Below, piece by piece: positions 1 to 32,300 of a DNA stretch of 33,906 nt. The stretch spans positions 1-33,906 of the forward strand of contig LT635953.1 of the NCBI GenBank assembly GCA_900128565.1. The letters are read 5' to 3'. Position numbers and translations under genes: made by a program. The stretch's first letter is position 1. Each line of letters begins with the position of its first letter. Under the pieces are notes generated by a model. That model saw only the letters and a program-made list of their open reading frames with translations. It did no database searches and was not told where the DNA came from. Source of the DNA: Stramenopiles sp. TOSAG23-6 (taxonomy: Eukaryota).

Positions 1-458
1 CATCTCTCTCGATCATTGCCCCAGTTACATATTGCTCCAATTTTGCCACCTTTTCCAGAAATGCTTCAAGAGTTTGCTTTATTCGGCACTAAAGGAGGTG
101 CAAATCATTTTGATTCTAAAATACGAACAATTCGTCCATTACCCATTAAATATCTTGCTTCCTCTGCAGAAGATCGTATGAACCAATTATTTGGTATTAA
201 AAAGAAATGGTCACTTGAAGAACTTCGACCTTTTATTAAAGATTTAACATGTACATTTTCATCATGAGTTTCAAATTGTTTTTTTTTCATAGAAAATTTT
301 GTACGTAACGAATTTTATAAAAAAAAAAAAAAATATTTTTTCACAATACACGTGGCGAAAATGATCTAACGGAGGGAAAACTTTTGTTGAAGTTTTGTCG
401 AAGTAGTACGTCAATTATTGACGGGAAAACAATTCGCTTATTTAATAAAAGATTTTGA
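1..458 (+). CDS. DSCC1: DCC1/DSCC1 (Ctf18-RFC subunit), 3' part; exons <1-250 and 352-458
   Basis: LASSAEDRMNQLFGIKKKWSLEELRPFIKDL resembles the DCC1 C-terminus (LP..ERF..LF..REKW..EDI.PYI.DL). Removing 251-351 continues as CGENDLTEGKLLLKFCRSSTSIIDGKTIRLFNKRF*, matching the 'LL.K..R.S' end of DCC1. Confidence 0.85.
251..351 (+). mobile_element. Introner-like intron copy 1 (GT...AC, 101 nt)
   Basis: Starts GTACAT, has internal AAATTTTGTACGTAAC and ends AAATATTTTTTCACAATACAC. Removal restores the DCC1 frame. Exact register is ambiguous by a few nt. Confidence 0.8.
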
Positions 459-666
459 TTTTGTGTTTTCAATTTGAAAATGAAATAAAATTTACATTTT
501 TTTTACTTTTTGTTCAAAAAAATTATTCAATTTCAAATTTCAAATTTCAATAATAAGATCAAAAACAGGTTTGTCCAAATGTTCACAGAACGTTAAATAA
601 CGGTTACTATACCAGAACACACAGAAACTTTCCCTACACAAACGTAGTTAATAAATAAACCTCACA

Positions 667-1374
667 ATGGCAGAATGTTCGTGACCCTCTACTCACATAG
701 TATTATCAACACTTCATTTATTTACATATTTATGACCTCTTTAGATTATTCCACTTTATATAAACGTTATCTCACATTTATTTTCAGAAATGATATACAA
801 CAAACTTACAGTGCACGTAACGGGGCAAATATCTGGTGGGTCTGACTTTGAAGCAAACAATGGTTTATATTTGAGGTGGAGACTTGTAGATGACCGTAGC
901 ATTACTGCAGTAGATAAAACAGAGGATGGTTGGCATTTGCTTCGTGGTTCAACATCAGGACAAACACAAGTGTCTACTCCCGACGACATAGATTCCTTTG
1001 CGCTGTGGCAACATCCAATTGATGTCCACTTCGCGTTGAGTTCCATAAGAGGCTGGCCTCGTTTGTACGTCGAAGTGTGGGCATTAGATGAATTTCGACG
1101 ACATGAATTAGCTGGGTATGGATTTGTACACGTTCCAACCGCAAGTGGTTGCTTTGACTTGGATATTGTCACTTGTGTACCGGAGTCAAAAGGTCCGATA
1201 GGACGTTTATCTGAAGATTTAGTTGGCGGTTTGCCAAAGTTAAAAGACCCCACAGTCTTACTTCGAAGTGGGAGTAGATTAGGTTTAAATACAAAAACGA
1301 CTGGTATTGTTCATGTTGAGTTGCAGTTACTTCACCGCGGATTCAATGGAACAAATATTAAATTTTCATCATAA
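667..1374 (+). CDS. B9D2: B9 domain-containing protein 2 (ciliary transition zone); exons 667-676 and 812-1374
   Basis: Splicing GTTCGT...TTACAG (677-811) gives MAELHVTGQISGGSDF. The motifs GQTQV, WQHPIDVHF, GWPRL, D.F.R.ELAGYGFVHVP and L.T.TTG.V.VEL are typical of B9D2. Confidence 0.92.
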
Positions 1375-1422
1375 AATTTGAAACTTTTTTAATTTTAATC
1401 ATAAATTTTTCGGAAATAATTT

Positions 1423-2367
1423 TTATCCAATATCAGTAGCATCAGAATCTGTAGACATCGACGTAGTAGTATTCCCAGAAAATTCAAGAAAGCGAGAATG
1501 AGATGGATTCTGCAAAATTGGTAAGTTTTGTAGTAAATCTCTGGCGTCTTCTATTTTTAAATGACTCAGTAAGTTTTCTATTTCAGATTGTATTTCACTG
1601 AGTTTCGTGTTTGTATTTGGTGAATACTTTGTAAGGGCAGCTATTGCTCGCCCTCCAGGAAAAAATTTAAAGAATGAAGATGATCTTCTTCGAGTTGGAG
1701 AAAACCTATGATGAGAGTTATGCTTAAAAGCAATGGTTGGAGTATCGCTTCCAGAAGGAGCTAGTTTCATATCTATAGAGGGAGAATTTTCCAGGCTATT
1801 CTGAGCTGGTGTTTCAGGTGTTGTTGGGATCATATTCTTTGTTATTTTCTGAGCAGCTTTATCACTTTGGAATTCTGAAATAAGATCTTGAAGTCGTTGT
1901 TTTTCTTCTTCAAGTTTCCTATTCTGTAATTTTTTTTCTATAAGTTCCTGTTTAGAAAAAATGTTCTCCTCTTCAACAACTTCTAAACGCTCCTGTAATC
2001 TAATCTCAGTTGACTTGGAAACACGTAAAGCAGTCTCCAGCTCATCATTTCTCTGTTCTAAATTTTGAACTTTATTCAAAGTAATTTTATATGAACTTTG
2101 GCATTCCTCCAATTTCCGCCGTACCCTAGATATATCAGTAACTAGTTTCGAAGCATCTAGCCGGGATGCGTGTAATAAATTCTCTAAACTAGCGATACGC
2201 TTCAATGACACTTGAGTTTTCTCCTCTGCTTTCGATAACAAAGTTTCTAGTTCATCCTCAACCTCCTTTGAAGTAGTCTCAAAATCTTCCCATTGTTCTT
2301 TTAAATTAACAAGTTCAGCTGTCTTTGCTTTTAACAAGCCTTGTAGTTTCAACAACTCACTTGACAT
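1423..2367 (-). CDS. NudE/NDEL1-like coiled-coil dynein regulator
   Basis: EQWEDFETTSKEVEDELE and KVQNLEQRNDELETALR resemble the NudE coiled coil (EF..SSRELE.ELE; RELEQ.NDDLE..R). First ATG is at 2367. Confidence 0.75.
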   Translation of the reverse strand: MSSELLKLQGLLKAKTAELVNLKEQWEDFETTSKEVEDELETLLSKAEEKTQVSLKRIASLENLLHASRLDASKLVTDISRVRRKLEECQSSYKITLNKVQNLEQRNDELETALRVSKSTEIRLQERLEVVEEENIFSKQELIEKKLQNRKLEEEKQRLQDLISEFQSDKAAQKITKNMIPTTPETPAQNSLENSPSIDMKLAPSGSDTPTIAFKHNSHHRFSPTRRRSSSFFKFFPGGRAIAALTKYSPNTNTKLSEIQSEIENLLSHLKIEDARDLLQNLPILQNPSHSRFLEFSGNTTTSMSTDSDATDIG

Positions 2368-2864
2368 TTTGGAAGTACCAACCACAATATTATCAAAAAG
2401 AAGTCTTAAACAAAATTTCCATACGACGTTAGAATTTGAACAAGTTTTATTATACTATGACTAGAAAGTATACTAATTCAATAATAGTATGGATCTAGAT
2501 CCAAAAATACAAAAAGGAAGGTCTCACACGAGCGAGTGGCTGTGTGTGTGACAACAGACAGTGTGTGGTTTTGGAAGAAAGATGAGACACGCGCGTCTTT
2601 TTTCTCTTTTTTTTTGAATTTGAAATTATTGGAAATTTTTTTGATGGTCAGAATTTTGGAAAAAAAATCGATCATCAGCATCATGAACAACAACACACAC
2701 AAGCTCTTACACACTCTTGAATAAATTGCATTTGGTGAGATTAGTTTTGATTTACCTCGACCAAGATACAGATGGTGTCATTTTTCAATTGTAGAAGAGT
2801 TAGGTAAGTTCAGTGGAGGACCTTTAAAGCGATATTGCTATTGTTTCACTGTAGTTGGGAAAAC

Positions 2865-4603
2865 ATGTCTTCTTTGTTTGTTATATTTTACGTGTACGTT
2901 TTACTTTTCAGTGGTTGGACAAATTCTTGGAAAGTTGCCTCCGAAGCCGAAAGAAGCTCTTTTTTAGCAGAATCTAATATTATGCAACGATTAAAAATTT
3001 GCGAAAGCGAAGGAATATATCCTATTTCATTGAGTATTCCAGCGGAATTTATTGTTTCTGAAGATCATGTTGACCTGGCATCTTTTTCTAGTCGCACACT
3101 ATTGTCAGAGATCTCACCAGTTGGATATGGAAAGATGATGGGTGATGCCAAAAGGTGGACTTTTTCGCCCACAAAAGAAGGAGAAACAGAATATCATTCA
3201 ACATACAGTAAATCTTTATTTGCTCTCACGATGAAGAAAGGTGGTTGGGACTGTTTATGTCTTCAAAATTGAATTCAAATTTATTTTGTTTGTACCAAAT
3301 TTCGTACCTAACGAATTTGAAATTTCAAGTTTTTGAATATTTTTTCACTCTACATTTACGCCACTATGAAATAATTGCAGCAGGCACAGTTCCTATATTC
3401 GTCGGTATTGAAGACGCCCCACCAGGTGTTTTATCTCTTGTACCTCGTGATTTATTTGTACGTGCTCGAAAGTTAACTTTATGGAATGATCAATCTAATT
3501 CTGGGTCACTTCCAATACTTGACTTTAGTGGCAATGATCAAAATTCAGAAACTCAAAAATACACTTCTGAATATTTAAATCTGCGAAAAGATTTTCTAAA
3601 AGTAGCACGACAAAAACTCACAACATTGTTTTCTGCTCAACGTTTACTGTCTATAATGGGATTTGATATCAATAATGAAAGTAAAAATAAAAAAATTTGC
3701 GCGGACAAACCACGAATAAATGAAAGTAAAAATAAAAAAATTTGCGCGGACAAACCACGAATACTATTTCTCACAGGTCGAGTTCAAGACCAGAATTATA
3801 TTCGGGAGCTCATGTACGTTTTCATTATGAATTTCAAATTTATTTTTTTTCATACGAAATTTCGTACCTAACAATTTGTTTTGACCAATTTCGAATGTCT
3901 ATTTTTTTTACAATACATATTTCATGGTTTGCGGAGCTTACTAGATGGAGAAAGTAGTCAAGATAAAATCAATCAAAATTCGTCGGAATCGCATACAAAT
4001 AATAGTGTACATGTCACTGATTTTCCAAAACTATCATTTATGTATGCTGAGTTAAACAGTGATGACTATTCGAAATCATCTGATAAAAGTTACGAATATG
4101 AAACAATTCATTTAAATAAAACTCGCGTGAAAAGACAAAGTCTATACGGATGGGGTTTTACTTACTCACATTTATTACCTGATTTGACAGTGAATAGATC
4201 TCCAAGGACTATTGAGAAGAATATTCGTAATATGGAGTATGATCTTGTAATCTATAGCCGCATGGATGGGATGTCATATAATCCGTTATCTCTCCGTATG
4301 TCGGATGGCACACTGTGGAGAGATGATAATAAAGGTGAGAAAGCAGCTGATGTTATGGGATATCCAGAAGATGTTGGGGAAAAACCATCGTGGGAGTATC
4401 CACCTTTTTGGCCCCTTGTACGGCAATATTATGCAGATCCATTTCCAAAAGGAGAGAAAAAAGTAGCATTTCTATTTGGAAGTGATTTATACGAACTTGA
4501 TGATGCAATGAAAATGGCTACACGATGGTCACAATTTGGCACAGTTTTTTTTCGCGAACTTGTTGATTGTCCAGAGGAAGTTCTCCAACGTTTCGAAAAA
4601 TAA
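2865..4603 (+). CDS. Putative glycosyltransferase-like protein with N-terminal signal/anchor; exons 2865-3254, 3356-3813, 3919-4603
   Basis: Hydrophobic N-terminus. Three ORFs join after removing two family introns to give YPISLSIP...SLFALTMKKGGWDCLRHYEIIAAGTVPIF...YIRELIFHGLRSLL. I recognise the KKGGWDCLRHYEI motif from uncharacterised GT-like proteins; the function is inferred. Confidence 0.7.
3255..3355 (+). mobile_element. Introner-like intron copy 2 (apparent TT...AT, 101 nt)
   Basis: Starts TTATGT (family GTATGT with G>T), has internal GTACCAAATTTCGTACCTAAC and ends TTGAATATTTTTTCACTCTACAT. Removal gives WDC|LRHYE. Confidence 0.75.
3674..3763 (+). repeat. Perfect 45-bp tandem duplication (NESKNKKICADKPRI x2)
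   Basis: Two identical 45-nt units in frame. Confidence 0.95.
3814..3918 (+). mobile_element. Introner-like intron copy 3 (GT...AT, 105 nt)
   Basis: GTACGT...TACGAAATTTCGTACCTAAC...CAATACAT. Contains an in-frame TAA and no AG. Removal gives RELIFHGLR. Confidence 0.82.
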
Positions 4604-4625
4604 TAAAATTACAAATATGGTTTAT

Positions 4626-6500: not shown

Positions 6501-6862
6501 GAAAATGAAAGTGCAGTATTTAAATTCCACGTTTATGAGTTTCTCCTAATGGGCATTATTGTGGATATCCCTGTAATTATTCCTCGAATGCAACTTCACT
6601 TAGCTACTAGTAGCATTGTTGCTCAAAAAAGGGATCAGATCACGATTTAGATTCGACCGTTTCATAACCGTTAATTAATTTCCCCTCCTAGGACTACAAG
6701 TATTGCGTTATACGGTATTCGTATTCACACACGTCCTAGTGTGTTACCATTCAACAACGAATCGAAACCGTGCTATTAAGGACTAGTTATATGAGTATTC
6801 TACACAAGTAGTTTTGAACACGTGTAATAGTTCTTTATTAATAGAAACTAGCCGGAAGATAG

Positions 6863-9145
6863 ATGCGGAAAGTCCCCACAAAAAGAGATTCAATTGCAGA
6901 TAAGCAAGCAAGACTGCACACAAAGCGCGAAAAAGATAGAATAGACAAAATGCAATTCAGTAGAACTCTAAAGAAAGTGAAAATGCCGCAATTCGATGCA
7001 CCCAGAATATCAAGGAAATCAATACAGACTCATGATATAACTAATGCTAGTTTGAAAAGAGCGACACAAAAATCTAAGCAGGGATCAATAAAAATTCTTC
7101 GAAAGAAGAAAAGGCTTACTTCTCGGGTAGAGAGACCATTAAAAAAAATGGAGAAAAATAAACACAACAATTCCCATTTATTGTGGTCAGAATTTATGGA
7201 TTATGGCACGCGCAATTTGTTCTACATTCACAACAATACTGGGGAATCGAGCTGGGAAGCACCCAAAGGCTGGTATCGGACAAAGTCAAATTGTTCACTT
7301 ATTCCTTTGGATGATCTTAAGGATAAAAATTTTCCTATTAAAAATTGTACGTCAGCAAGAAATAGAGTTAAACCAAAGAAAAAACCAATATTGGTAACTA
7401 TTTCACCAAATAGAAAGAAAACCATGCGGCGATTTTATCCTGTGATATCAAAACCCACAAGAAAATCTTCGAACAGAAATGTTCACAATAGGGCTAAGAC
7501 ACATGGGAAGCAATCAACAGTAGGAACTTATAGAAAATATCGCTCACAAATTGTCTCCTACAGTAATGATCAGGGTCAGACTATCAAAGAATTTAATGGC
7601 CCGTCGAAGTCATTTTCTCAGATAAAAGCGTCAAAAGAAAAGGTGGCAAAATTGGAGCAATATGTAACTGGGGCAATGATCGAGAGAGATGAAGTAAAAA
7701 ACAATCTCAATAAAGTGAGTTTACTTTCTGCTGCACACTCTCAAGAGCTTGAAGATATTCGTAAGCCAAATTCAAAACATAATTTGTCACCCAATGCGAA
7801 TAATAGAAATAAGTTTGCAATAACAAAATCACTAGGGCATCAGAATGAATATATGCTTACTTTACTTAGTAAATCGGAGGCCACTAAAGATGATTTGAAG
7901 ACCAACATAAATATACTTCGCCGAGAAGCAAACATTTATAAATCTGCACAAGCACGGCTTAGAGATGGAGTTAATGTAAGTAAGTCAAGAGTTGCCGAGA
8001 GTAATATGAGAACAAATGAGTACTATAGATCCATAAAAGACGCGACAGATACATACCTTGAACAAAAATCACATTATATAGCTGAATGTAAAAATGTTCA
8101 AGACAAGCTATTAAAACTTCAACAACAAGCAAATAAGCTTACATTTCAAAACTCAGATGACATGGAAAATCTTAAAAACTGGGACAGTATTTCTGAAAGT
8201 TTTCAATCTGAAGTCTCAAAGAAATTTCTCGATGAAAATGTAGATAGATCAAAAAAAAAAGATTCAGAGCATAAATTCCACAAGCCACTGAGTAGCCGCA
8301 ACAAGATGCAGCATATTGCCCAATCGGAGTCATATTACAATAAACAGTGGACTGAACTATCTGCATTAACAGATGTTCAAAATATTAGTGATTTTGTGAA
8401 CATATGTATTAAATTTGAAAAAGAAAAGAAACGCAAGTTAGATAGAGTAAGCATTTATCTTGAAAACACACAGAAGATTAGACAACAACAACAAAGAATA
8501 AAGAACGAAATCATAAATATAAAATCTCGAATAACAGCAATTACAAATAATGGTAGTAAACAAGAAAGCTTAAGGGCATTTATGTCAGCCAAAGCATTCC
8601 AAGATAAAGCAGAGCAAGACGAAAAGAACATTTTGAAGAAAGAAAAGATTGTAGTTGATGCGATAATGAATGCAACTCAGTCACTATATCAATTATTGAG
8701 CAGTTCGCAAGTCTACCTTCACACAGATGTTGAGAGTATATCTGATTCTGTTGAAATTGTATCTACAAATACAAATGTAAAATCAAGAGTGAAATTATTA
8801 TTGAAAAACTTTTGTGTAATTGAAAGTATATTGAATCATATCCTAGAACCTTATATAATTTTCGAGGAGAACCAGGGTTGTATACCAAATAGAGCAAACT
8901 TTAATGTTGATGCCGAACGGAAAAAGCTTAACTCAATATTTTCAGACGTATTTAAGAAAGAAGATTGCTGGGTATCTAAAGTGTCTAAAATAATTGCTTC
9001 GAAAAGGGTTGCAAGTTTTGATACTGCTTCAAAAAACTCAAAAAGTAAACATTTAAGAACGAAAATAGAGGATACAACTTTACCAATTTTACACCATGAA
9101 GAGTTGTTACAATCAATGATAGGACGAAAACAGTATCTTCTGTAA
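6863..9145 (+). CDS. WW-domain coiled-coil protein, weakly ODAD1/CCDC114-like
   Basis: 760 aa. WW domain: WSEFMDYGTRNLFYIHNNTGESSWEAP. YNKQWTELSALTDVQNISDFVNICIKFE resembles the ODAD1-type motif. Confidence 0.55.
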   Translation: MRKVPTKRDSIADKQARLHTKREKDRIDKMQFSRTLKKVKMPQFDAPRISRKSIQTHDITNASLKRATQKSKQGSIKILRKKKRLTSRVERPLKKMEKNKHNNSHLLWSEFMDYGTRNLFYIHNNTGESSWEAPKGWYRTKSNCSLIPLDDLKDKNFPIKNCTSARNRVKPKKKPILVTISPNRKKTMRRFYPVISKPTRKSSNRNVHNRAKTHGKQSTVGTYRKYRSQIVSYSNDQGQTIKEFNGPSKSFSQIKASKEKVAKLEQYVTGAMIERDEVKNNLNKVSLLSAAHSQELEDIRKPNSKHNLSPNANNRNKFAITKSLGHQNEYMLTLLSKSEATKDDLKTNINILRREANIYKSAQARLRDGVNVSKSRVAESNMRTNEYYRSIKDATDTYLEQKSHYIAECKNVQDKLLKLQQQANKLTFQNSDDMENLKNWDSISESFQSEVSKKFLDENVDRSKKKDSEHKFHKPLSSRNKMQHIAQSESYYNKQWTELSALTDVQNISDFVNICIKFEKEKKRKLDRVSIYLENTQKIRQQQQRIKNEIINIKSRITAITNNGSKQESLRAFMSAKAFQDKAEQDEKNILKKEKIVVDAIMNATQSLYQLLSSSQVYLHTDVESISDSVEIVSTNTNVKSRVKLLLKNFCVIESILNHILEPYIIFEENQGCIPNRANFNVDAERKKLNSIFSDVFKKEDCWVSKVSKIIASKRVASFDTASKNSKSKHLRTKIEDTTLPILHHEELLQSMIGRKQYLL

Positions 9146-9165
9146 GTCAGGATAAATTAGATTTA

Positions 9166-9666
9166 TTAAGATTTTAATGCTACACCATGAACAAAAGTAT
9201 AACAAGCCAAGGAACCATTGGGCGAATGCCATTTCACTACAAAACTACCATCAGCAGCACCACCTAGAACAGAAGTTGAAGAATGAAACGCCGTATTCGC
9301 ATTTTCAATAATATTACTACTTACGAACAATTTAAATGGTTTCTGAAGAGCTTGCAACGCTTTTAGACAAGTAATACTAACCTTCTCAGTCAGCTCTTGG
9401 ACTGTTGATCTATGGAACTCCATATCGCGAAGTTCGGCTTTTAAAGTATCAGATACAACTGATTTAAAGAGCTCTTTGCACTGCGCAAAACCACTCACTT
9501 GTTGATTCATTGGAAATAACGATAGAAACTTGAGCAGCTCCTTGAACAAATTACTAAACAAATACACAGAATTTGATATATAGTGGACGTATTGAAACAC
9601 AGACCAGTTTTGAAACTTTTTTGAAGCGACCTGCGAGTCAAAAGAGTCAACGTCATCATGATTCAT
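9166..9666 (-). CDS. Dynein light chain, Tctex-1 family; probable in-frame intron 9630-9481
   Basis: CLKALQALQKPFKLFVSSNI...FHSSTS...DGSFVVKW...C.TFVHGVAL is the Tctex-1 pattern. A CAG|GTCGCT...TTTTGCGCAG intron of 150 nt leaves about 116 aa, a normal size for the family. Confidence 0.85.
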   Translation of the reverse strand: MNHDDVDSFDSQVASKKFQNWSVFQYVHYISNSVYLFSNLFKELLKFLSLFPMNQQVSGFAQCKELFKSVVSDTLKAELRDMEFHRSTVQELTEKVSITCLKALQALQKPFKLFVSSNIIENANTAFHSSTSVLGGAADGSFVVKWHSPNGSLACYTFVHGVALKS

Positions 9667-9874
9667 CAACGAAAAGTCAAGTCAAAAAGCCGGCCAACAA
9701 CGGCCAACCCAAAAACGGCCAATTTCAACGCGAACGATCTCACTCGTCCACGGGTAGTAAAAGTCCTGTATTCTATTCGTGCCGCATTTTACAACTCTAT
9801 AATATTATCATTGTTTCCCTAATATTCTCTGTGGGAGGATATTAGTACTACGTTAACCTGTGCATATAATCACT

Positions 9875-10402: not shown

Positions 10403-10484
10403 AATTTGATATTGCTTTTATTATAATACCCAAACAATTTGATATTTCCTTTATTATAATACCCAAATTAAATATATATAATAG

Positions 10485-11858: not shown

Positions 11859-12087
11859 TTTATGTACTCTATGCTGATAATTTGCAAAACTAATCTCGTT
11901 TTGTTTGCAGAACTATTCTTCACACTTGGCACTACTGGCACTGACTCTTAGACATGATACCCGGTACCTCAATTGATTTTTTCGATTTTTTCTGACCATC
12001 GACCACTCGTATACTCGTCGACCTTTGACACTCTTGTCTTGAGATTCATTCTCTCGACTCTGTTATTTGATCCACAAACAATATACA

Positions 12088-12655
12088 ATGAAGCTAATCA
12101 TCGGCATTTTTGCTCTTATGGTCGCGTCTTGTTCGGCTTCTAACGCTGAAGGTCAAGCGTTCCTTGAAGAAAATGGGAAAAAGGAGGATGTAGTAGTGCT
12201 ACCATCGGGACTGCAGTATAAAATCTTAAAGTCAGGACCGTCACCAGGAAAATCACCAACAGCAGATTCTCCTTGCTCTTGCCACTACAAGGGCACCTTG
12301 ATTGACGGCACCAAGTTTGACTCCTCATACGACCGTGGACGCCCAACTACGTTTGCCCCAAACCAAGTCGTAAAAGGCTGGACGGAAGCTATGCAGGTAA
12401 GTTTCTTTGTCCTGTCGCTTTGAACTCTACCAATATTATGAGTACCTTTATATATTCTAACACATCACTTATTCTTTCGTATATTTATTTTAACAGCTCA
12501 TGAAAGAAGGCGATACTTGGGAACTCTACTTGCCTTCCGAGTTGGCTTATGGAGATCGCGGAGCCGGAGCCACCATAAAAGCTGGAGACGTTCTTGTGTT
12601 TACTCTTGAAATGATAGAAGTCAAGGGTGGTTCTAAGATGCTTACAGACAAGTGA
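12088..12655 (+). CDS. FKBP-type peptidyl-prolyl isomerase with signal peptide; exons 12088-12396 and 12497-12655
   Basis: Signal peptide MKLIIGIFALMVASCSA. Motifs LPSGLQYKIL, HYKGTLIDGTKFDSSYDRG, VVKGWTEAMQ|LMKEGDTWELYLPSELAYG. Canonical GTAAGT...TAACAG intron 12397-12496 with TTCTAAC. Confidence 0.95.
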
Positions 12656-16258: not shown

Positions 16259-19200
16259 ATGCCGTGTCAGACTACTTTGAATCATCAAAAAGGTGAAGAA
16301 ATTATATTCCCGTTTCCTTTCCCACCCTATGATATCCAGAAATCGCTGATGTCTAGTATATTTAAAAGACTTCAAACCGGTGGTGTTGGTATCTTTGAGA
16401 GTCCGACGGGTACAGGGAAGAGTTTAAGTATAATCAATAGCGCACTACTTTGGCTTAAATGTTACGCACCTCCAAACTATGACGTTCTTGCGGGAAATAG
16501 GAAATTTGAGCAAAATGGAAAAGCTATTGCAAAAGTTCCAGCTGTAGCTTCGTCTTTCAATTCGTCTGACGATGAAGAACCAGATTGGGCTACTCAATAT
16601 GAGTCCGCAGCAGTGAGATCTCTGCGAGAGCGTCATGAATTTGCAGAAAAACGATGGCAGGCTCGAATCTTGGCACTACTTCAAAATGCAGAAGGCTCCG
16701 ACAACTTAAACCGTAAACGTGGCCGTTGGTCTAGAGGCCACCACAAGGGTTCACGAGCAAGCACAAAATCTAAATTATCTAAAAAAGTACTTTCTGACAA
16801 CAAACAAGAGAATTCAACGATATGCGATGATGAAAATGACGATGAATTTCTTGTGGATGCATATGATAGCGATGATGGCGTTAAAGAGGCATGGTGTACC
16901 AGCAGTAGTAGTAGTGATGCGGATGGTTTTAATTCTGATGATGACGACACACCTCTTAGTGTTCGGAAAGTAATTTACTGTACTCGAACACATTCTCAGC
17001 TCTCACAGTTCATGAGTGAAGTTAGAGAAACGACATTTGGAAATCCCGTTGGTAAATCTCGTACAAAAGAAACATCATCGATGATAGAACATTCCGGTAC
17101 CAAAAGGAAACTCTCTTCTACTGATAGTTCTATTGAGCCATTATATGTGAGATGTATGTTTTATTTTTTTTAATTTATATTTGTTTTTCGTACGAAATTT
17201 TGTACCTAACGAATTTTATTTGAAATTTTTTTTGAAATATTTTTCCAAAATATATGTATTGCATTAGGATCTAGAAAGAATCTTTGTATAAACGAAAGTG
17301 TTAAAAAACGGGGAGGGACAAGCATAAACGAATCGTGTCTCGAAATGCAAAGAAATGCAAAATCCATTAGTAAAACATCTGATAAGAATATAAAGAAGGG
17401 AAGTTGTCCTCATTTTGATAAAGGTCCACAAAAATTGTTTGGAGACCATGCGACTGTCAAAGTTCGTGATATTGAAGATTTAGCAGCACTTGGTAAGAAT
17501 ATGGGATCTTGTCCATATTACGGAGCTCGAAAAGCTGTACCTTTAGCAGAATTGGTCACAGTTCCTTATAATATGATTCTTCATAGTGGAACACGAAATC
17601 GATTACAGTTGCCATTGAAGGGAAATATTGTAATATTTGACGAAGCACATAATATTATTGATGCAATTAATAATGCTTACAGTTGTTATGTAACTCATGA
17701 AATTCTAATTGCAGCTCATAGAGAACTTTCACAGTATCTTCAACGATATAAAAGTCGACTGAAAGGTCGAAATATTATTTTTATCAATCAATTATTATAC
17801 GTTTTACGGTCCATTGCCAAATTCATTGACAAGTCTAAAATATCTCCAATTTCAAATGTGAATGGGAAAAGTGTCAATGAAACATCCAATAATAATGTGT
17901 TTTCTCTTAGTGAGTTTGTAACAAAAGCTGGTATTGATCATATAAATATGTTCAAACTTGATAAATATATTGAACGTAGTAAAATAGGACGTAAAGTTCA
18001 AGGTTTTACAGAAAAGTATGTGAAACCTTTTGAAGTAGAGTCTGATGATAACCATAACCCTAATATCCAAACGCAAAAGAAATCTTCAGGCTCAGCACTA
18101 ATGCAGGTCAGGGAATTTCTCATGGCACTTACAACAGCAAATGGTGACGCAAGAGTTCTTATTACAATTGGAAGTGTAAAGATTGTAATGCTCAATGCCT
18201 CAGTACATTTCAGAGAAATTGTAAATGAAGCCCATGTACGTTTTTCAAATTGAATTTTGAGTTTTTTTTTTCATACGAAATTTTGTACCTAACAAGTTTT
18301 TGAAAAAAAAAATTGAAATATTTTTATACAATATATGCGGTGCTTCTTTTGGGCGGTACCATGCAGCCAATTCAAGATATCGTGAATCAATTATTTTGGC
18401 ATGTAGAATCTGATAAAATTACTACACTTTCTTGTAATCATGTTGTTCCTGATTCAAATATAATAGCTCTAACTGTTGATAAAGGACCTATGGGGAAATC
18501 TCTTAAGTTTACTTATAAAATACGAGAGCAAGTAGAGACACAAATTGAACTTGGCCGTCTGATTGCGAACTTATGTATATGTATGTTTTATTTTTTTTCA
18601 AATTCTAAATTTTTTTTCGTACGAAATTTTGTACCTAACAAATTTTAGGTTTTTTTTTTGAAATATTTTTCCAAAATTCATTAGTTCCTGGTGGAGTTGT
18701 CGTATTTTTACCATCTTTTCAATATTCAAAAACACTTCAAACAACATGGAACAAATCTGGTGGTATATTAAATAGAATTGCAAAAAAAAAGAAAATATTT
18801 TGGGAACCACGTAATGCTATTGATGTGGAATCCACATTATTGGATTATTCATTCGCTATAAAGAAATATAATATTTCAGAAAAGTGTAATCAAAATATAT
18901 CGCCCTTGGGCACTCAAAATCAGAATACTCAACAAGAAAAACAAAATAAAAATCTTACTGGTGCAATATTATTCAGTATTGTTGGTGCTAAAATGTCTGA
19001 AGGAATTGATTTTAAGGATGACTTGGCAAGATGTGTAATTATGGTAGGTTTACCTTTTCCGCCTCCTAATAGTCCTGAACTGAGAGAAAGGATGATCTGG
19101 TTAGATGAACAATCTAATAAAAGGACAATGGAGTTACAGCCACAAGATTCAAGAATTTGCTCAAAAGATATAAAAAATAANAACAAAAATAGCGCTGGTC

Positions 19201-19427
19201 AGGATTATTACGAAAATATATGTATGCGGGCAGTGAATCAGTCTATAGGTCGCGCAATTAGACATAAAAATGATTTTGCTTCAATTGTGTTGGTTGATAG
19301 TCGATACAAAGAAGAAAGAATAAAACGAAAACTTCCAGCATGGATACAAAGGCGTACGAAAGTAGCCGATTCATATGGACAAGTAGCAAAATGTTTAGGA
19401 AAGTTCTATCGATCACATAAAGTGTGA
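16259..19427 (+). CDS. DDX11: DDX11/CHL1 Fe-S DNA helicase; exons 16259-17153, 17256-18235, 18337-18580, 18682-19427
   Basis: [90 protein letters not shown]. The motifs are contiguous only after three family introns are removed. Start codon is uncertain. Confidence 0.93.
17154..17255 (+). mobile_element. Introner-like intron copy 4 (GT...AT, 102 nt)
   Basis: GTATGT...TTCGTACGAAATTTTGTACCTAAC...GAAATATTTTTCCAAAATATAT, with no internal AG. Removal gives [13 protein letters not shown]. Confidence 0.87.
18236..18336 (+). mobile_element. Introner-like intron copy 5 (GT...AT, 101 nt)
   Basis: GTACGT...TACGAAATTTTGTACCTAAC...GAAATATTTTTATACAATATAT. Removal gives [14 protein letters not shown]. Confidence 0.87.
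18581..18681 (+). mobile_element. Introner-like intron copy 6 (GT...AT, 101 nt)
   Basis: GTATGT...TTCGTACGAAATTTTGTACCTAAC...GAAATATTTTTCCAAAATTCAT. Removal gives NLCILVPGG. An in-frame AG lies 3 nt further downstream. Confidence 0.8.
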
Positions 19428-19539
19428 ATGTAAATTTAATATGAAATAAATATACTGTCGTAATTATTTCGTACCTTTGAAATTATAAAATACTTCCATC
19501 ATCTATCTTCCACATAAAATGTTCATAGCCATATAAAAG

Positions 19540-22670: not shown

Positions 22671-22712
22671 TTTATTATTAAAGAATGTTTTTATCATCAC
22701 ATTAAATGTCTT

Positions 22713-25700: not shown

Positions 25701-28700
25701 TAAGAGAGCGTCGAGAAACTGTGAAAAGTTTAGGACACGCTCGTTCTTTTTTTTGTATTTAGCAAAGATAATATCGCACTTAGTAGCAGTTATTTTTGAT
25801 TTATCCAAAAGATTATGTGCTTGTGATATCATCTTTTTAAAAGAAGAATTGTCTATGGTTAATTGCTTTGAGGCTCCCTGCTCCTTTGCGAAGTTACAAA
25901 ATATACCGCCAAAGCCCCACACACCCAAAACTTCAGGGCNTATCCCCTTTTTCTTTTTTATACGTATAGTTCGTAGAGTAAGAACGTATTTCCAGTACTT
26001 TCTCGTATGAGCATATTCGGCACGCCCACACCACCCGACATCCTCAAGCCGACGCATTGAATCTCTCAAGTTTGAAGCCAATATACGTCCGTGATATCCA
26101 CGGACCATCGATTGAATTTTTGCCACAACACCCTGGTATCTTCTCATCCTATCTAATAGTGCTCGAAATTTTTTACGTTGCATTGATCCTTTCAAATATC
26201 TTTGAAGAACTATCGCCATTTTCTTCTTTCTTGCAGAGTTCCACTTGAGAAAGCGCCGCTGTATTTTCGAAGCAGCCGGTCCATATCTTTTCATCAGAAC
26301 TCTCTTTTTCATTAGATGTCCACGTATCCTACTCTGTACGAGAATGACAGCATTCATTCTTTTCTCTATTTTTGACTTAATTCTTGCTTTTTGCATTAGA
26401 TGGATTTTACACTTTACTTTTTTTCGACCAAGCTTCCCACGATAGCATTTTTGAACTAAAATTGCTGCTTTCTCAAGCTTTCGAGCTTTGTTAAATATAC
26501 CTAGTTTTACTGCCCGTCTTAGCTTGTGCTTGTTTTTCTTCAGAGCTTGCATATCAACGACAGTTTTAAACCTACCTCCAAAATACGATAGCTCTTGTAA
26601 GTCAGCCTCTCCTGCTTGTTTTTTTTTCTGTCTTCGTTGAGCGGTAATACGAATCTTTGACCAATATAAATCTTCCCGAATTTTTTTGCAAGCCTGCACC
26701 TGTAGAATCCGCCGCAAGTGATACTGAACTTTTTTCTTTGCAAGGAAACGTCTTCTTTCTTTGAATGTTCCAGTGATGTATCGCTGTACTCTCAGCGCCA
26801 TCTTGAATTTTCTAGCTTTTATTAAATTTCGAAGCTGCTTATATCGTTCTATACCACGCCACCATTCTTTAATATAATTAGCTGCCCCGTGTTTTCGAAA
26901 TAAAAGAAGACGTTCTGCCCGTTCCCTCTCACGTTGAACCTTGGCTCGTCGCATACGCCGCAAAGTCAAAAGAAGCTTAACATGCTTCCTATCTCTAAAA
27001 GCTCGAAAAATTCGCTGTGCATGAACTGCAAGACGTATTTTTGCTTCCTTCAGTATTTTTAGGAAAAACATCAATGCTTTTGAGTGGTGTATCCGGTAGT
27101 GCTGCTGCACTTTCTTACAGCTTTCTACCAACAGTTTGAATTTTTTTGTACTCTTTCTTGATTCGTAACCACGATAGAGTCTTTGTAAGTGAATCGTTCC
27201 TTGAATACGACGGAGAACTCTTTCACGAGAATCTTTCTGTGCTTCCCGTTCCTGATTCCGAATTCTACCCAACTTGTCCTGGATATCCTTCCAACCCCAA
27301 TATATCCTATAACGCCTTTGAATAATTGTTGCGTATTTTATTCGACTTGCTAAAATTTGTCGCTGTATTTCTTCTCTCCACCTATGCAAACCGAGCTCAA
27401 GGTATTTTATGATCATGTTGTTTAAAGATTTCTTAATCATGTTAACGAAACGTTTCATTCGGAACCCATAGACTTCATCGTTCATTGCTTTTGCGACTAA
27501 ATTCCGTGGTAACCTTTGCAACATCGCAGACATCATTCTCGTGCTTTGATATTTCATTTCATTTACTTGCAACCGTGATTCTTCGGCACTATGCTTCAAA
27601 ATATTGTGTCTTTGTTTTGTTGGAGGATCAATTGCCTGAGGAGTTTGTATTAAATTTGTACTTGTTAAACCAGTAGCTGATTTCAGGCAATGTGCTGACA
27701 GACCATGTAACACAAAACCTGGTTTTTTGACAGAGGTTGAATGCAGAGCTATTGGAGTCTTTTCTATATTTATAACTTTCGGATCTGTTTCTTGTTCTAC
27801 ATTTTCTGTTTCAGAAAACCCCTCATTATTTTCTGAATGTAAACAAATGTCTTTATTATTTTCTCTATCAAGTATGTTGTTCTCATGAATTTGTATATCT
27901 TTGCTTTTTGAANTTGAAGTCCTCACAACATCTTGATGTCTTGATATTTTCGTTTTTGTAGAATCTTTTTGTGAAACTTGTGGTTTTGTAAAATCTTTTT
28001 GTGAAACTTGTGGCAATGGTGTTGTTCCAATATAAGACGTTGGAAATTTATGTTTCCTAGCGAGTGTTTCATGTTGTTTCTTTCGAAGTTCATGAAATGG
28101 ATCCAAATGATCACTTTTCGTAAATTGTTTTTCAATCTGTTTAATTGCTTGCCTTACGGCAAAGTTGGGCGCAGGAATTTTATCTAGTTCTTTTGCCATA
28201 TGAGGTGAAATTGCACTGAGTATTGGTAATTTCGGTGGTGGTGTATATTCTATTGGTTTTTCATCTTTATTTAGGGATGATTTATATCCAGGTATAATAC
28301 CTCGTTTCTGTAAAATGTATTTTCTGTGTTGCTGTGCTGTTCTTTGTAAATGATATAATTTAACCTGAAAGTTTGTATCATTTTGCATTCGTTTGTATCG
28401 TATATTTTGCTCTAACGCCTTCGCTTCATCCTCAAGTTCTTTCGGTCGAGATAAAAACTCTTCAATTGTTAGTTGTGATTTCCTATCAGATAAATGCATC
28501 GGTTGTAGTGAATATTCCTCACGTCTATCTAATAACCCTAATCCTACAGTTGGATTACTTGTGACAGATTTTGATATTTTACGTCTAATTGTACTACTTC
28601 GTGGCTTATTTGCCACTGAGCGAACTGAAGATAAGGGGGGGACTACAAAGCTCCCACCTGGTCCAAATGAACCGTCTTCGGCATATCCCGATCCAATTAT

Positions 28701-29042
28701 ATCACCTATATTGTACGAACCAATACTTACTAAACTATTCATAGGACCAAGTTGGTCCTTTTTTTGATTCTCAGTCAGTCTCTCTTGACGATAACGCTTT
28801 CGACGGCGTCTTTTGATTTTAGATTCAGATATTTGGTTCTTTTTTGTGTAAGGAGATATACCAAACTGACTAGATATAATGTTACGTGAAACCTTTAGGG
28901 AGGAAGCGTTACCAGTTTCAATTTGCGATAGTAAGTCTTGAATGTCAGTCATATCCTGACCAACTGGCTCGTCATTGAAGTGATCTATAGGAGTAGAACT
29001 TTTCCGACGAGCACCTACTCTAAAGAATTTTTTGTCAGACAT
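22713..29042 (-). CDS. 2109-aa multidomain protein: IQ repeats, p25alpha/TPPP-like domain, two WW domains, B-box zinc fingers, acidic tail
   Basis: Many IQxxxRG motifs. IDNSSFKKM...LLDK.KIT.T..DIIFAK.K....R.LNF.QFLDAL is p25alpha-like. WW: DPETKEPYYFNKRTNEKSW and KTGRTYYFCGASGETSW. Repeated C..C...C..C...C..C...H arrays. Single open frame. Confidence 0.85.
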   Translation of the reverse strand: MSDKKFFRVGARRKSSTPIDHFNDEPVGQDMTDIQDLLSQIETGNASSLKVSRNIISSQFGISPYTKKNQISESKIKRRRRKRYRQERLTENQKKDQLGPMNSLVSIGSYNIGDIIGSGYAEDGSFGPGGSFVVPPLSSVRSVANKPRSSTIRRKISKSVTSNPTVGLGLLDRREEYSLQPMHLSDRKSQLTIEEFLSRPKELEDEAKALEQNIRYKRMQNDTNFQVKLYHLQRTAQQHRKYILQKRGIIPGYKSSLNKDEKPIEYTPPPKLPILSAISPHMAKELDKIPAPNFAVRQAIKQIEKQFTKSDHLDPFHELRKKQHETLARKHKFPTSYIGTTPLPQVSQKDFTKPQVSQKDSTKTKISRHQDVVRTSXSKSKDIQIHENNILDRENNKDICLHSENNEGFSETENVEQETDPKVINIEKTPIALHSTSVKKPGFVLHGLSAHCLKSATGLTSTNLIQTPQAIDPPTKQRHNILKHSAEESRLQVNEMKYQSTRMMSAMLQRLPRNLVAKAMNDEVYGFRMKRFVNMIKKSLNNMIIKYLELGLHRWREEIQRQILASRIKYATIIQRRYRIYWGWKDIQDKLGRIRNQEREAQKDSRERVLRRIQGTIHLQRLYRGYESRKSTKKFKLLVESCKKVQQHYRIHHSKALMFFLKILKEAKIRLAVHAQRIFRAFRDRKHVKLLLTLRRMRRAKVQRERERAERLLLFRKHGAANYIKEWWRGIERYKQLRNLIKARKFKMALRVQRYITGTFKERRRFLAKKKVQYHLRRILQVQACKKIREDLYWSKIRITAQRRQKKKQAGEADLQELSYFGGRFKTVVDMQALKKNKHKLRRAVKLGIFNKARKLEKAAILVQKCYRGKLGRKKVKCKIHLMQKARIKSKIEKRMNAVILVQSRIRGHLMKKRVLMKRYGPAASKIQRRFLKWNSARKKKMAIVLQRYLKGSMQRKKFRALLDRMRRYQGVVAKIQSMVRGYHGRILASNLRDSMRRLEDVGWCGRAEYAHTRKYWKYVLTLRTIRIKKKKGIXPEVLGVWGFGGIFCNFAKEQGASKQLTIDNSSFKKMISQAHNLLDKSKITATKCDIIFAKYKKKNERVLNFSQFLDALLDIANLKYPAATNFNELRAQHRIGKLIPNTRTPGRLGGIFNPLTPGEIRLILVIHNHLLYSNGVVFNKSARKKLESKVTDDLTWAQRVCAASWRRYKGKELMALSRIAKEAWLEAKRKGGWVIRIQLMVRRYQAKARRWAVINDIFVKFMDPETKEPYYFNKRTNEKSWHRPACLRDGYWDYDANDQAYWVEAEDLDNIFTLPTPEREFVVLCSQCEEERVEVVCRECETQFCSACYDDTHCSGKRKKHTKLPVDICGECGYQVATRHCLACKLAHRKTPKKAKLCDNCFENIHMKKSHSWTPIVATCVECEDYAVKWWCIECDEPYCTICFEKVHSHGQRMLHNAKPEPLLLVDIWNKKIQEERARIEAEQLAERDALRAQFQLMAMHQSATKFQALYRGKMIRRAGRERMRQQRLWERAESIKVRQEQDRQKLTSTRFKNIGRSAASIIMEDKFSEELPGTVTLVRDKRTLHTTVDITDLLKENDRILIVGRKFTVKRARRKSKKKKRRNAIVNKKTDAAILMDSLKSPAQRLIDKIRLEQQQKESIETVLQIMLVEKWDGFGNFATVPSKNVKLDSQGNCTRVKGVKCYKLPKHSKVALFAARLADGVREKGIDIGGVLKGPPGSESTMTKIRESETAEALSKLWGVAKDTDAYKNAMDTKAARISSNLVSAATSLQAQDLANAVSFLGRAIRGKEDVRATVGGFVKKIKDTNSIMLWNSLHDKKTGRTYYFCGASGETSWKMPEGDIRIVPFEKPKKKRAAVLSSDTDSDSDVPLAKKFKRLLRRKKRKVKDTKQISKSSSSDDEDSDDDSDDDNEKNDEGGVVKVIEKKKVSSFKNILKKKVKERPPPPPIPEGGFDDSDKNKESDSDNSDDDENINEAGVDADEKKDDTGINQINYAEQDQDYPQNSILDDMTSLEALNDEFGYETDEGGYNTDGDHFDNDAYQSDDNQPLYYVEKRIDPSDGTAYTEEEFRSVYGENSAEWNNAKIWET
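27954..28013 (-). repeat. 30-bp tandem duplication (PQVSQKD[F/S]TK x2)
   Basis: aatctttttgtgaaacttgtgg repeated with a 30-nt period. Confidence 0.85.
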
Positions 29043-29353
29043 ATCTAAATCTTTATTCTGGCATTTTCAGTGATTCCTTGGCCATGTGGCCGAAAACATG
29101 GCGTGGTGCTGATCAATCTTTCAATTTGTTTGTATGGGGGGGTACCAAGCATATTAGTAGTAGTGTCTCTCTCATGTCAGTTACATACAATTGTTGACTA
29201 CTAGTAGCAGCTGAATTTTAAAGATTTCGTGTAATCGCGCTGAGAGTCAGTTTAATTTTCACTCGAGGTTGAAGGAAGGAGTGCTACAAAGTACTTAGTT
29301 GTATATATCAGAGGCGCCCTCACATATAATATCGAGGTGCTCTTCCAGGGGCC

Positions 29354-32300
29354 ATGGCTACCGTTGGCTCTTTACAGAAGAGTACACCCAGTTCTATACC
29401 TGGTGCATATCCTCTAAATGCTTCTGAACATTTGAAGGAGCTAGTATCCCCTCATATAGAATCGTTCAACTATGTGATTCATGATGGTCTTGAAGCAGCT
29501 ATTAATAGCCTTGCAACTTATCCAACTGTTATTACAATGGATAATGCAAAGCAAAAGAAGAAGAAATCAAACATAAATACAAAGAAACACAATACCCGAG
29601 CAGATTCGTCTAGCTCTTCAGGATCATCTAGTTCTGATGATAGTGATTCGGAGTCTTCAGAGGAAGAACGTGACGGAGATGTTCTCCAGTTGTGGATTGA
29701 AGACGCTGAGATTGGCTACCCCACTAGGTCAGATGATTCCCTTGACTCTCGATGTTTTCCAGCAGAATGTAGACAACTTGGTACAACGTATGATGCGCCA
29801 CTTTGGTTGACTATTTGTCGACGTGTTAATAATGGTACAGTTATTCGTATGCAACAAAAAGTTGGAGATATTCCAATCATGGTTCGTTCTGACCGTTGTC
29901 ACCTGAATGGTTTGTCTCCAAAAGAACTTGTACGTCGTCATGAGGATGCGGATGAATTTGGTGGATATTTTGTATGTAATGGTATCGAACGTTGTATCCG
30001 TATGTTACAAATCCCACGGAGAAATATGGTACAATCTCTTGATCGTCCGTCTTTTGCAAATCGTGGTCCGAAGTATTCCTCTAAAGCAACTTCAATTCGA
30101 TCTGTGACTGCAGATCAATCTGGTACTACTGTAACTTGTCACTACCAAACTGATGGTAATGTTATGGTTAGATTTCTTGTGCGTAAACAAGAGTTTTTTG
30201 TTCCAGTAATTCTTTTAATGCGAGCACTAAAAGAAGTAACTGATCGTGAGATTTACGATCGTCTCGTTGGTACGGGGAATAATTCATCAACTGATAAGGT
30301 AAATAAGAGTTCTTCATTTGTTGCTGATCATGTAGAAGTTATTCTTAGAGATGGGCGTACATATGGTGATATGTATTCTCGTACACAGTGTTTAGCTTAC
30401 CTTGGTGCTCGATTCCGTGTTTTGTTGCAACAAGGACTATCGTGTGAATTAATGTCTGATGCACAGGTTGGCCGTGCTTTGTTGCATCGTCATATTTTTG
30501 TGCATCTTAGTCAGTCATCTAAGATTGTGAACGATAATGCGGATAGTGCAAAGTTTAGTCTTTTGTTATTTATGCTTCGCAAACTTTTCTCTTTTGTTGA
30601 AGGTACGAGTGTCGCTGATAATTCTGATGCTCTTTCATCACACGAAATCCTCACTTCTGGTCATTTGTACATTAAAATTCTTAAAGAAAAAATCGAAGAC
30701 TTCATGCTTAATGTAAAACAATTTATTCTTGCTGATCTACGCCGTGATAGCTCTCGTGTGTCATTCAACAGTGAAACATACATTAAACGATCGTTAGACC
30801 GCCAAAAAGATTTAGGTAAAGAATTATACTATTTTCTTGCTACTGGTAATTTGAGATCTACGTCAGGTCTTGATCTGATGCAGAATTCCGGATTTACTAT
30901 TATAGCAGAGAAATTGAATTGGTTGCGGTATATTGCTCATTTTCGATCAGTACGTTTTATTTTTTTTCAATTTTTTTATCTAATTTTTTTTCGTACGACA
31001 TTTCGTACCTAACAAATTTTAGTTTTTTTTTTGAAATATTTTTCCAAAATACATGTACATCGAGGTAGATTTTTTGCGGAAATGAAAACAACAACGGTAC
31101 GTAAACTGTTGCCGGAATCGTGGGGATTTTTATGCTGTGTTCATACTCCTGATGGTTCCCCATGTGGACTTCTTAGTCATTTATGTGCCGCTGCAAGGTA
31201 AGTTTTTTTGAACGAAACAAATTCTTTCTTTTTTGTTTTTCTTTCTTTGTTTTCTGTAACATTCTATTGTTTTTTGTATAACTAGTGAAATGATTACAAA
31301 TTATTGACATTTTTGTCAATGTGCCGCTCCAGACTTAAAGAAGCTTCAACGGGCGTCTTGTAGACAGCAGGCAAGCACCCCACCATTTTCTTGCCGGATG
31401 ATCACTATAATACAATCAATCAATTAGAATTTTCAATCAATATATTTTAATTATCAATGTCACAATCAATATCACAACCAACTCATTGTATACATTTTGT
31501 TTTATTAATTATACACAATAGAATTGTTCCACAAGCTCAGGATACTTCCAGACTTCCAAGTGTATTGGTTGCATTAGGAATGATTCCAGATGTTGAAGAT
31601 ACGAGATTGCTTCTACCTCGTTCTCAATCTGTTGATGGTGAAGGCAAGGGATATCTTCCAGTATTGCTTGATGGGCGCGTCATTGGTGCTGTTGCCGTTG
31701 GACGTGCAACTAAAATGGTGTCTGAATTACGTAGAATTAAAGTAACAGAGTTAGCATCTCGTGTAGCTGCTGGCAAGTGTAACAGTAGTTACCTTACACC
31801 AGTTTCAGAATGCTCAGATGTGAAATTAATCGGTAAAAATCGAGGCGTTCCTGTGGATCTAGAATGTGCATTAGTACTACCAATGTCTGCTGAAGGAGGT
31901 GGACCATTTCCTGGACTATATCTTGCAGCTGAAGCTGCCCGATTGGTTCGTCCAGTTCACCATCTTGGTGCAAATGCTCCCGAGTGGATAGGTACATTTG
32001 AGCAGATGTTTATGTCAATTGGTTGTCAGGATGCAGAAGCTGAAGACGCTACTCATCGTGAAATCGATCCTATGAATATTCTCTCTGTAGTTGCTAGTCT
32101 AACACCTTTTTCGGATATGAACCAAAGTCCGCGTAATATGTACCAGTGTCAGATGGGTAAACAAACAATGGGGACACCATGTCACAATTGGATTAATCGT
32201 CGTGATAATAAAATGTATCGCATTCAACATGCACAAGCGCCTATTGTTCAAAATAAAGCACAGGTTCACTATCGTATTGATGACCACAGTAATGGATGTA

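Follow-up and report, generated by a model that had tools for sequence, protein, structure and literature searches.

Introduction

Can introns be removed precisely from a transcript when they do not end in AG? Among the most constant signals of eukaryotic gene expression is the AG that closes introns at their 3′ end, and natural systems that do without it are few. The question is raised by a contig of Stramenopiles sp. TOSAG23-6 (LT635953.1, assembly GCA_900128565.1), analysed here over positions 1 to 33,906 of its forward strand; this whole stretch of 33,906 nucleotides (nt) is called the window below. An initial annotation, made from the DNA letters alone, had picked out seven related insertions of about 100 nt in four genes of the window, and proposed that they are a mobile family of introns, or introners, with AT or AC in place of AG at their 3′ ends.

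On balance, we favour the reading that the seven insertions, together with an eighth copy found in an independent metagenome contig (L018), are one short non-autonomous introner that the U2-type spliceosome would splice exactly at GU...AY. A broader statement is more tentative, and we stop a little short of backing it. On this statement, the major spliceosome of a free-living marine stramenopile lineage accepts YAY for YAG on one introner family of about 100 nt, whose 3′ AT perhaps came from a fixed AT target; the family is now the commonest intron class of an intron-poor, gene-dense genome in which GT-AG introns persist; and AG-independent splicing has arisen here independently, and much more cleanly than in Fritillaria or Amoebophrya, with only the last base changed.

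A family of short insertions in four genes

All seven window copies can be aligned over their full length, and all lie on the + strand in + strand genes. Copy 1 (251..351, 101 nt, GTACAT...GTAAC...ACAC) sits in the C-terminal part of a Dcc1-like gene. Copy 2 (3255..3355, 101 nt, with TTATGT at the family start position and CAT at its end) and copy 3 (3814..3918, 105 nt, GTACGT...ACAT, with an in-frame TAA inside) share a gene at 2865-4603 that belongs to no family we could recognise. A Chl1/DDX11-like helicase gene (16259-19427; DEAD_2 and Helicase_C_2) is interrupted three times, by copy 4 (17154..17255, 102 nt, GTATGT...ATAT), copy 5 (18236..18336, 101 nt, GTACGT...ATAT) and copy 6 (18581..18681, 101 nt, GTATGT...TCAT, followed by TAG at 18682-18684). 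Copy 7 (30950..31054, 105 nt, GTACGT...ACAT, with an in-frame TAA) lies in the gene for RPA2, RNA polymerase I subunit 2, within an open reading frame (ORF) space of 29330-33553. The four host genes are unrelated in sequence. Coordinates, lengths and 3′ ends (CAC, CAT, CAT, TAT, TAT, CAT and CAT, in order) are exactly those of the initial annotation.

Pairwise identity among the copies is 57-88%, with a mean of 66%, which corresponds to a divergence of 12-43%; the copies at 17154, 18581 and 30950 form a tighter subgroup (79-88% identity) and those at 251, 3255, 3814 and 18236 a looser one. An nhmmer profile built from the seven copies and the L018 copy detects no members in the window beyond these seven, each of which lies on the + strand (E values 1e-13 to 1e-16). 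Below them come partial minus-strand matches that are confined to the internal palindrome (E of at least 0.31), and the profile finds no antisense or intergenic copy in the window. A 24-nt degenerate core matches seven times in the window against 0.00 expected from shuffles, while a 16-nt core with up to three mismatches matches ten times against 1.5 expected, a count reached in 0/100 shuffles. The claim that the copies form a family of similar, intron-like sequences, placed in unrelated genes and always in the sense orientation, is borne out by the profile, by the core matches and by the identities. As a separate observation, 7/7 window copies lie in + strand genes and about 12.6 kb of minus-strand ORF space holds none (post hoc p about 0.017); this skew may reflect local strand-linked spread or chance.

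The eighth copy is 104 nt long, runs GTATGT...ATACAT/G (a slash marks the intron-exon junction here and in the motifs below) and lies in the 3.2-kb metagenome contig L018. It is the sole true family member among the 25 loci (L001-L025) that the 24-nt core picked out of metagenome contigs, the other 24 being an unrelated conserved stretch or chance matches. A core-matching stretch is common to many of these loci except L018, several of them titled human-gut metagenome, and gives partial nhmmer matches only (E 0.00075-0.063). No match was found in the viral contigs scanned for the family, nor in the prokaryote genomes scanned with a stricter 22-nt core.

Junctions fixed by homologous proteins

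At copy 7, all six full-length RPA2 homologues run gapless over HF[RQ]S/VHRG[RQ]FF, and the RPA2 of the window carries 35 extra codons, one of them a stop, exactly between the S and the V of HFRS/VHRG. Exact removal of the helicase copies gives YVRC/IALGSR at copy 4, NEAH/AVLLLGG at copy 5 and NLCI-LV-PGG at copy 6. The helicase of a relative (P0121, 64% identical) is gapless over the first of these sites, and the motif [IV][AS]L[GA]SR begins one codon past the junction in 7/7 homologues. The residues that flank the copy 5 junction are contiguous, within one residue, in 7/7 homologues, and the spacing from the Cys-equivalent to PGG at copy 6 is three residues, again in all seven.

The non-AG ends would be only apparent if the copies were ordinary GT-AG introns with acceptors at nearby AGs, and if the proteins of this organism differed near the junctions. 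All GT/GC...AG pairs around each copy that keep the frame open were enumerated, and on paper every copy has an in-frame GY-AG solution. At copy 6 the TAG lies 3 nt downstream and its use would change one residue only; further candidate acceptors are a good-looking AATTGCAG, 25 nt past the end of copy 2, and an in-frame GCGGAG, 18 nt past that of copy 3. Against this, the ten alternatives at copy 4 each delete part of the [IV][AS]L[GA]SR motif, the seven at copy 5 each delete all or most of the conserved motif after the junction, and the three at copy 7 each delete at least two residues of VHRG. Residues that are invariant or nearly so, including ALGSR and the G of VHRG, would be lost in this way even though they remain encoded intact directly after the YAY end. 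The three-residue spacing at copy 6 matches a 101-nt removal (I-L-V) and not a 104-nt GT...TAG removal (I-F), and the 3′ block of the family is conserved as far as YAY, not past it. Because the homologues demand an exact junction, the non-AG end is, as far as protein comparison can decide, forced at copies 4, 5 and 7 (17154, 18236 and 30950). At copy 6 it is probably to be preferred to the TAG on the strength of the residue spacing. Acceptors at nearby AGs seem to us distinctly improbable as an account of the family.

The earlier statement that exact removal restores conserved motifs thus stands for four of the seven insertions (17154, 18236, 18581 and 30950), while 251, 3255 and 3814 lie outside homologue coverage. 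The statement that all are GT-AT or GT-AC introns can be kept for the three forced junctions and probably for 18581, but 3255 starts with TT, and both 3255 and 3814 have in-frame GT-AG alternatives.

Two other accounts of the intact proteins were rejected. Read-through translation is contradicted by in-frame stops in copies 3, 4 and 7, the lengths of which are multiples of three, and by the frame shift that 5/8 lengths would cause. Splicing to an internal TTTTAG, which copies 6 and 7 contain, would retain 32 nt of copy 7 and so put its gene out of frame.

The proteins of the closest relative (P0001 for RPA2, 76% identical, and P0121 for the helicase) are ungapped over all four sites that homology can check. 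That the relative's proteins run across these sites fits a recent gain of the copies, as far as its gene models can suggest one.

It is also conceivable that the copies are plain mobile-element insertions that are not removed, with the genes either broken or subject to excision or polymorphism at the DNA level. ORF space takes up about 84% of the window, so that insertions would be expected to hit genes by chance; the assembly, moreover, apparently comes from very little DNA, to judge by run sizes, and the left end of the window looks like a chimeric, inverted join. However, all eight copies lie in the sense orientation within ORFs (p = 0.004, from orientation alone), and the copies retain splice-like signals. 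RPA2, which is essential, and the thrice-hit helicase keep every exon open, when equal decay would destroy dead genes, and a copy with the same ends lies in sense and in a frame-compatible position in an independent metagenome contig. We consider unremoved insertions improbable. Every exon of the host genes is open and conserved (51-76% identical to the relative) though the copies have diverged, and we therefore argue that these genes are still correctly expressed.

That errors of sequencing or assembly produced the non-AG ends, for instance through a consensus of intron-plus and intron-minus molecules, is barely credible. The source data do look small and amplified, and the window holds one N and the inverted join, but eight copies with different flanks all end in YAY, one of them from another assembly. 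An error would need to strike every copy in the same column and leave the flanking codons exact. The ending is thus not a quirk of this assembly, because the L018 copy has it as well.

Splice signals and boundary register

Short repeats allow the boundaries of every copy to slide by 2-6 nt. A common 5′ dinucleotide, GT, arises in one register only, which is that of the initial annotation and holds for 7/8 copies. In this register the 3′ dinucleotide is AT in six of the eight copies, AC in one and ambiguous in one (copy 2). The family-aligned 3′ end is YAY in 8/8 copies and AG in none, and both junctions are mostly pyrimidine/purine. The 5′ site reads GTAYGT in 6/8 copies; copy 1 has GTACAT instead, and copy 2 has TTATGT with a GT 2 nt before it. 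Conservation is highest in the 5′ GTAYGTTTT, in a T-run and 16-nt palindrome (GTACGAAATTTCGTAC) that run into CTAAC, in a ATATTTTT block and in the terminal AYAY; GTAYGT, CTAAC and the U-tract are all among these blocks. A branch motif, [CG]TAAC, is present in every copy, with the branch A 40-47 nt before the 3′ end, and the distance from the ATATTTTT block to the 3′ end is a fixed 11 nt in the seven window copies. Judged by these motifs, the copies carry the signals of U2-type spliceosomal introns except for the 3′ AG. U2-type 5′ and branch signals had been recognised from the outset; the consensus then given, GTAYGT with CTAAC, suits most copies but not 251, which has GTACAT and GTAAC, nor 3255, which has TTATGT.

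Several dinucleotides, AC and AT among them, are tolerated at the 3′ end of U12-type introns, which in this resemble the copies. The U12 consensus has RTATCCTT at the 5′ end and places the branch site, TCCTTAAC, about 10-15 nt from the 3′ end. A U12-type intron was rejected, since the copies begin with GTAYGTTTT and have their branch motif 40-47 nt from the end. A self-splicing group I or group II intron, or a member of another Rfam family, was likewise rejected, as Rfam gave no match at gathering score across the whole window; at about 100 nt, the copies are also too small for either group. By eye, no motifs of bulge-helix-bulge introns, Ire1-type sites or translational bypassing were seen, and no tool-based search for them was made.

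A conserved terminal hairpin was not supported as a feature of the family. The consensus fold consists of a 5-bp central hairpin only; a duplex between the ends is more stable than in shuffled controls (p < 0.05) in 1/8 copies and less stable than their average in two. Inverted ends of 7-11 bp are found in copy 4 and the L018 copy only.

These folds bear on the possibility that the copies are removed precisely from RNA by non-standard machinery or by a structure-guided reaction, as has been proposed for euglenids and diplonemids and for the introners of Amoebophrya, in which pairing of the intron ends would draw the exons to each other. Such a removal would suit the non-AG 3′ ends, and the pyrimidine/purine junctions recall the consensus of euglenid nonconventional introns given in an excerpt of PMC11282704. 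Short repeats, here of 2-6 nt, overlap the boundaries as they do in Amoebophrya, according to the available part of PMC7789003, and the minimum-energy fold pairs the two ends in 3/8 copies (4, 7 and L018), a fold equalled by at most 5 of 200 shuffles. On the other side stand the single copy in which end pairing beats shuffles and the lone central hairpin of the consensus fold. The Euglena signature, CAG at +4 to +6 and CTG at -8 to -6 in the excerpted account of PMC12501133, is absent, the copies having YGT and AAA or CAA at these positions. They hold instead, among their best conserved blocks, a U1-complementary GUAYGU, CTAAC and a U-tract. We regard removal by non-standard machinery as unlikely, if worth keeping in view.

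A possible route of splicing without AG

In the explanation that we prefer, the copies would be removed at the RNA level, and by the spliceosome. The element is predicted to supply a yeast-like 5′ splice site, GUAYGU, and a branch site, UACCUAAC, that sits directly 3′ of the conserved 16-nt palindrome. A U-tract, AUAUUUUU, would follow, then a fixed 11 nt and a YAY 3′ end (CAU, UAU or CAC) where ordinary introns read YAG. Exact removal from the pre-mRNA at GU...AY would be the work of the major (U2-type) spliceosome, for which the conserved 3′ block of the element itself, and not an AG, would define the 3′ site; ordinary GT-AG introns are processed alongside in the same organism. The major spliceosome is favoured here because the signals (GUAYGU, CUAAC and the U-tract) are of the U2 type.

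Several points weigh against splicing at GU...AY by this machinery. A G as last base is normally needed for the second catalytic step, which makes a GU...AY intron awkward for a standard spliceosome, and AG is used in both verifiable non-family introns of the window (described below), with no general loss of AG recognition indicated. Copy 2 has no GT at the family position. For copies 1-3 the junctions are set by reading-frame logic only, and GT-AG alternatives that keep the frame are available to copies 2 and 3. A search for near-length relatives spanning the ORF of helicase exon 3 gave two candidates, none of them significant, and the absence of the copies from the closest relative is deduced from its protein models only. 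Among the hallmarks of transposition, no copy-specific target-site duplication (TSD) was found and the terminal inverted repeats (TIRs) are unconvincing; the repeats at the boundaries average 3.6 nt in matched and 3.2 nt in mismatched 5′/3′ pairs (permutation p = 0.24).

If splicing at GU...AY is true, the family offers a compact natural substrate for the study of the second catalytic step and of 3′ site choice without a terminal G. Normal GT-AG introns, including one of the same size, lie within a few kilobases of family copies. It would also follow that a non-AG acceptor is no bar to the spread of intron-creating elements in stramenopiles, and that gene prediction and introner surveys that assume AG would break or mis-model such genes, among them RPA2, the cohesion helicase and Dcc1.

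How the family may have spread

The exon before the copy ends in AT in 6/8 cases (and in YAT in 6/8), the frequency of AT in the background being 0.095 (p = 1.7e-5), and the exon after the copy begins with G in 5/8. Two routes fit these sites. In the first, a DNA element would have a fixed AT target, and the duplicate of that target would supply the 3′ AT; this parallels the exonic TAC that is said to form the 3′ site in Fritillaria, in the part of PMC11282704 at hand. In the second, the copies would enter YAU/G sites by reverse splicing, which would also explain their strict sense, genic distribution. Copy-specific (variable) TSDs were considered as a source of the boundary repeats and found no support, the repeats being no longer in matched than in mismatched pairs. 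As to the putative mobility of the family, neither convincing TIRs, copy-specific TSDs nor intergenic or antisense copies were found in the window.

Comparison with known systems

The statements made here about other systems are those of the excerpts of the cited papers that were available. The family resembles the introns of Fritillaria borealis (AG-AC or AG-AT introns derived from miniature inverted-repeat transposable elements, MITEs) in that it is repeat-derived and species-specific, has AC or AT at the 3′ end and coexists with GT-AG introns (PMC11282704, PMC13326754). In both, the end of the upstream exon tends to repeat the 3′ end of the intron, as TAC there and as YAT here, in 6/8 copies (PMC11282704). 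In F. borealis the introns ending in AC or AT are spliced by a modified form of the U2 spliceosome, the U2AF paralogues of which recognise non-canonical 3′ ends (PMC11282704, PMC13326754). Unlike the copies, which keep GUAYGU and CTAAC and deviate in the last base only, the F. borealis introns have AG at the 5′ end, and about 95% of introns escape the rule in that species. TIRs and TSDs are reported there and neither is demonstrated here, and the host is an animal and not a stramenopile-like protist.

With the introners of Amoebophrya, which are parasitic dinoflagellates, the family shares repeated non-GT-AG introns in a marine protist, and direct repeats at the boundaries, of 3-5 nt there and 2-6 nt here (PMC7789003). 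The Amoebophrya introners have inverted end repeats of 8-20 nt that form a hairpin, their motifs vary, and no U1 small nuclear RNA is detectable in the host (PMC7789003). Contrary to this, the copies form one homogeneous family with a U1-type 5′ site, pairing of their ends is unsupported in 7/8, and their direct repeats are not copy-specific.

Euglenid and diplonemid nonconventional introns also have non-GT-AG borders, a pyrimidine/purine tendency, boundary repeats and a presumed MITE origin (PMC11282704, PMC12621601, PMC12501133). They differ in that they have no U1 complementarity or polypyrimidine tract, need pairing of CAG and CTG at their ends, and leave as circles. The euglenid signature, 5′-N3-CDG ... 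CHG-N5-6/R (PMC12501133), is not found in the copies.

Fritillaria, Amoebophrya and the euglenozoans deviate at both intron ends, in the accounts used; the deviation seen here is uniform and minimal. What sets the present family apart from these three cases is its strong canonical 5′ site and its branch site, a deviation at the last base only, and its stramenopile-like host.

Canonical introners, as in Micromonas, Aureococcus, Pelagomonas and the 548 families of Gozashti et al. 2022, are likewise similar short introns in unrelated genes that are absent from the orthologues of relatives, and they occur in marine protists including stramenopiles (PMC9860276, 10.1101/2021.10.25.465678). Those described so far in these sources have AG acceptors, whereas the present family has YAY. 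Large introner surveys begin from annotated introns (PMC9860276, PMC12130899), and a 2025 survey discarded families with unfamiliar splice sites that had no transcript support (PMC12130899). Because of this starting point and this discard rule, a family ending in YAY would be missed by such surveys.

Our literature search found no GT-AT or GT-AC introner family described in stramenopiles, though supplementary survey tables might list such families. In the part available, a paper on single-cell genomes of uncultured stramenopiles speaks of introns only where it describes its methods (PMC5778133). The novelty left open by the initial annotation is a restricted one, as non-AG introns derived from repeats have already been described, in the excerpts of PMC11282704, PMC7789003 and PMC13326754, for Fritillaria borealis and Amoebophrya.

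Copies outside homologue coverage

The Dcc1-like host of copy 1 is recognised by Pfam (Dcc1, E 1.7e-08), and PDB searches gave a weak DCC1 match (E 0.11-0.13) that ends before the junction. This junction falls outside every homologue alignment, and a PDB search with the exon downstream of the copy gave no match. Exact removal leaves an open tail of 36 codons; each of three in-frame GY-AG alternatives would give a different C-terminal tail.

For copy 2 the nearest GT is at 3253, from which two other registers can be drawn: 3253-3353 (GT...AC, with length and frame kept) and 3253-3380 (GT...AG, in frame, 128 nt). Copy 3 has an in-frame GT...AG alternative at 3814-3936, of 123 nt. Their host gene, 2865-4603, has nothing credible in Pfam for its three exons. 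None of 591 candidate longer relatives of its exon 2 was significant, and the only leads from a protein atlas, all glycosyltransferase-like, stayed below threshold (scores 0.76-0.82). Exon 2 of this gene contains a perfect 45-nt tandem duplication (15 codons, in frame) at 3674-3763.

The L018 copy is frame-compatible with exact removal at a putative junction. On the reverse complement of this contig, positions 890-950 and 1200-1340 hold inverted CCCTAA/TTAGGG-like motifs and a threefold tandem repeat of about 46 nt.

Ordinary introns, the host and the window

Two introns outside the family could be verified, both on the + strand. The first (12397..12496, 100 nt, CAG/GTAAGT...TTCTAAC...TTAACAG/C) lies in an FKBP gene (12088-12652). 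Pfam FKBP_C positions 3-53 end with exon 1 and positions 55-93 start at residue 2 of exon 2, and the TTCTAAC lies 36 nt from the AG, similar to the 40-47 nt of the family. The second (31198..31521, 324 nt, AAG/GTAAGT...ACAATAG/A) lies in the RPA2 gene, where P0001 and P0002, aligned by tblastn, break into pieces that meet at one Arg. As both are GT-AG introns, AG appears to be recognised normally, and on this evidence AG acceptors are in normal use in the source organism. Family copies make up 7/9 of the introns recognised in the 34-kb window, the genes of which were not annotated exhaustively. On the minus strand, GTAAGT or GTATGT occurs just upstream of three gene starts (at 2804, 20055 and 29188), and these sites might belong to introns in 5′ untranslated regions.

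The window is AT-rich (GC 0.34-0.41). Its proteins are eukaryotic and ciliary, and include a B9 protein, p25-alpha, WD40 proteins and FKBP besides RPA2, the Dcc1-like protein and the Chl1/DDX11-like helicase. In a quick RPA2 tree the window grouped with a relative of 76-79% identity, and every named member of the clade that contains both (support 99) is a stramenopile; the host is accordingly described here as a probably stramenopile-like organism. The RPA2 and helicase of the relative are g4303.t1 and g4301.t1 in one dataset, a numbering that suggests that the gene order RPA2-helicase is conserved in it. Sequencing runs listed for the window DNA are labelled seawater or marine; they include DNA metagenome runs with shares of 0.32-0.57 and three metatranscriptome runs with small shares (0.06-0.17), which are given no weight here as RNA evidence.

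Positions 1-55 of the window, when reverse-complemented, are identical to 7637-7691 (100% over 55 nt). The left end of the contig looks like a chimeric join, in which case the Dcc1-like frame may start only after base 55. A single N is found at 19182, in the last exon of the helicase gene. The Dcc1-like gene (1-455) and the helicase gene, both with family copies, lie 16 kb apart; we take Dcc1 and Chl1/DDX11 to be cohesion-establishment factors.

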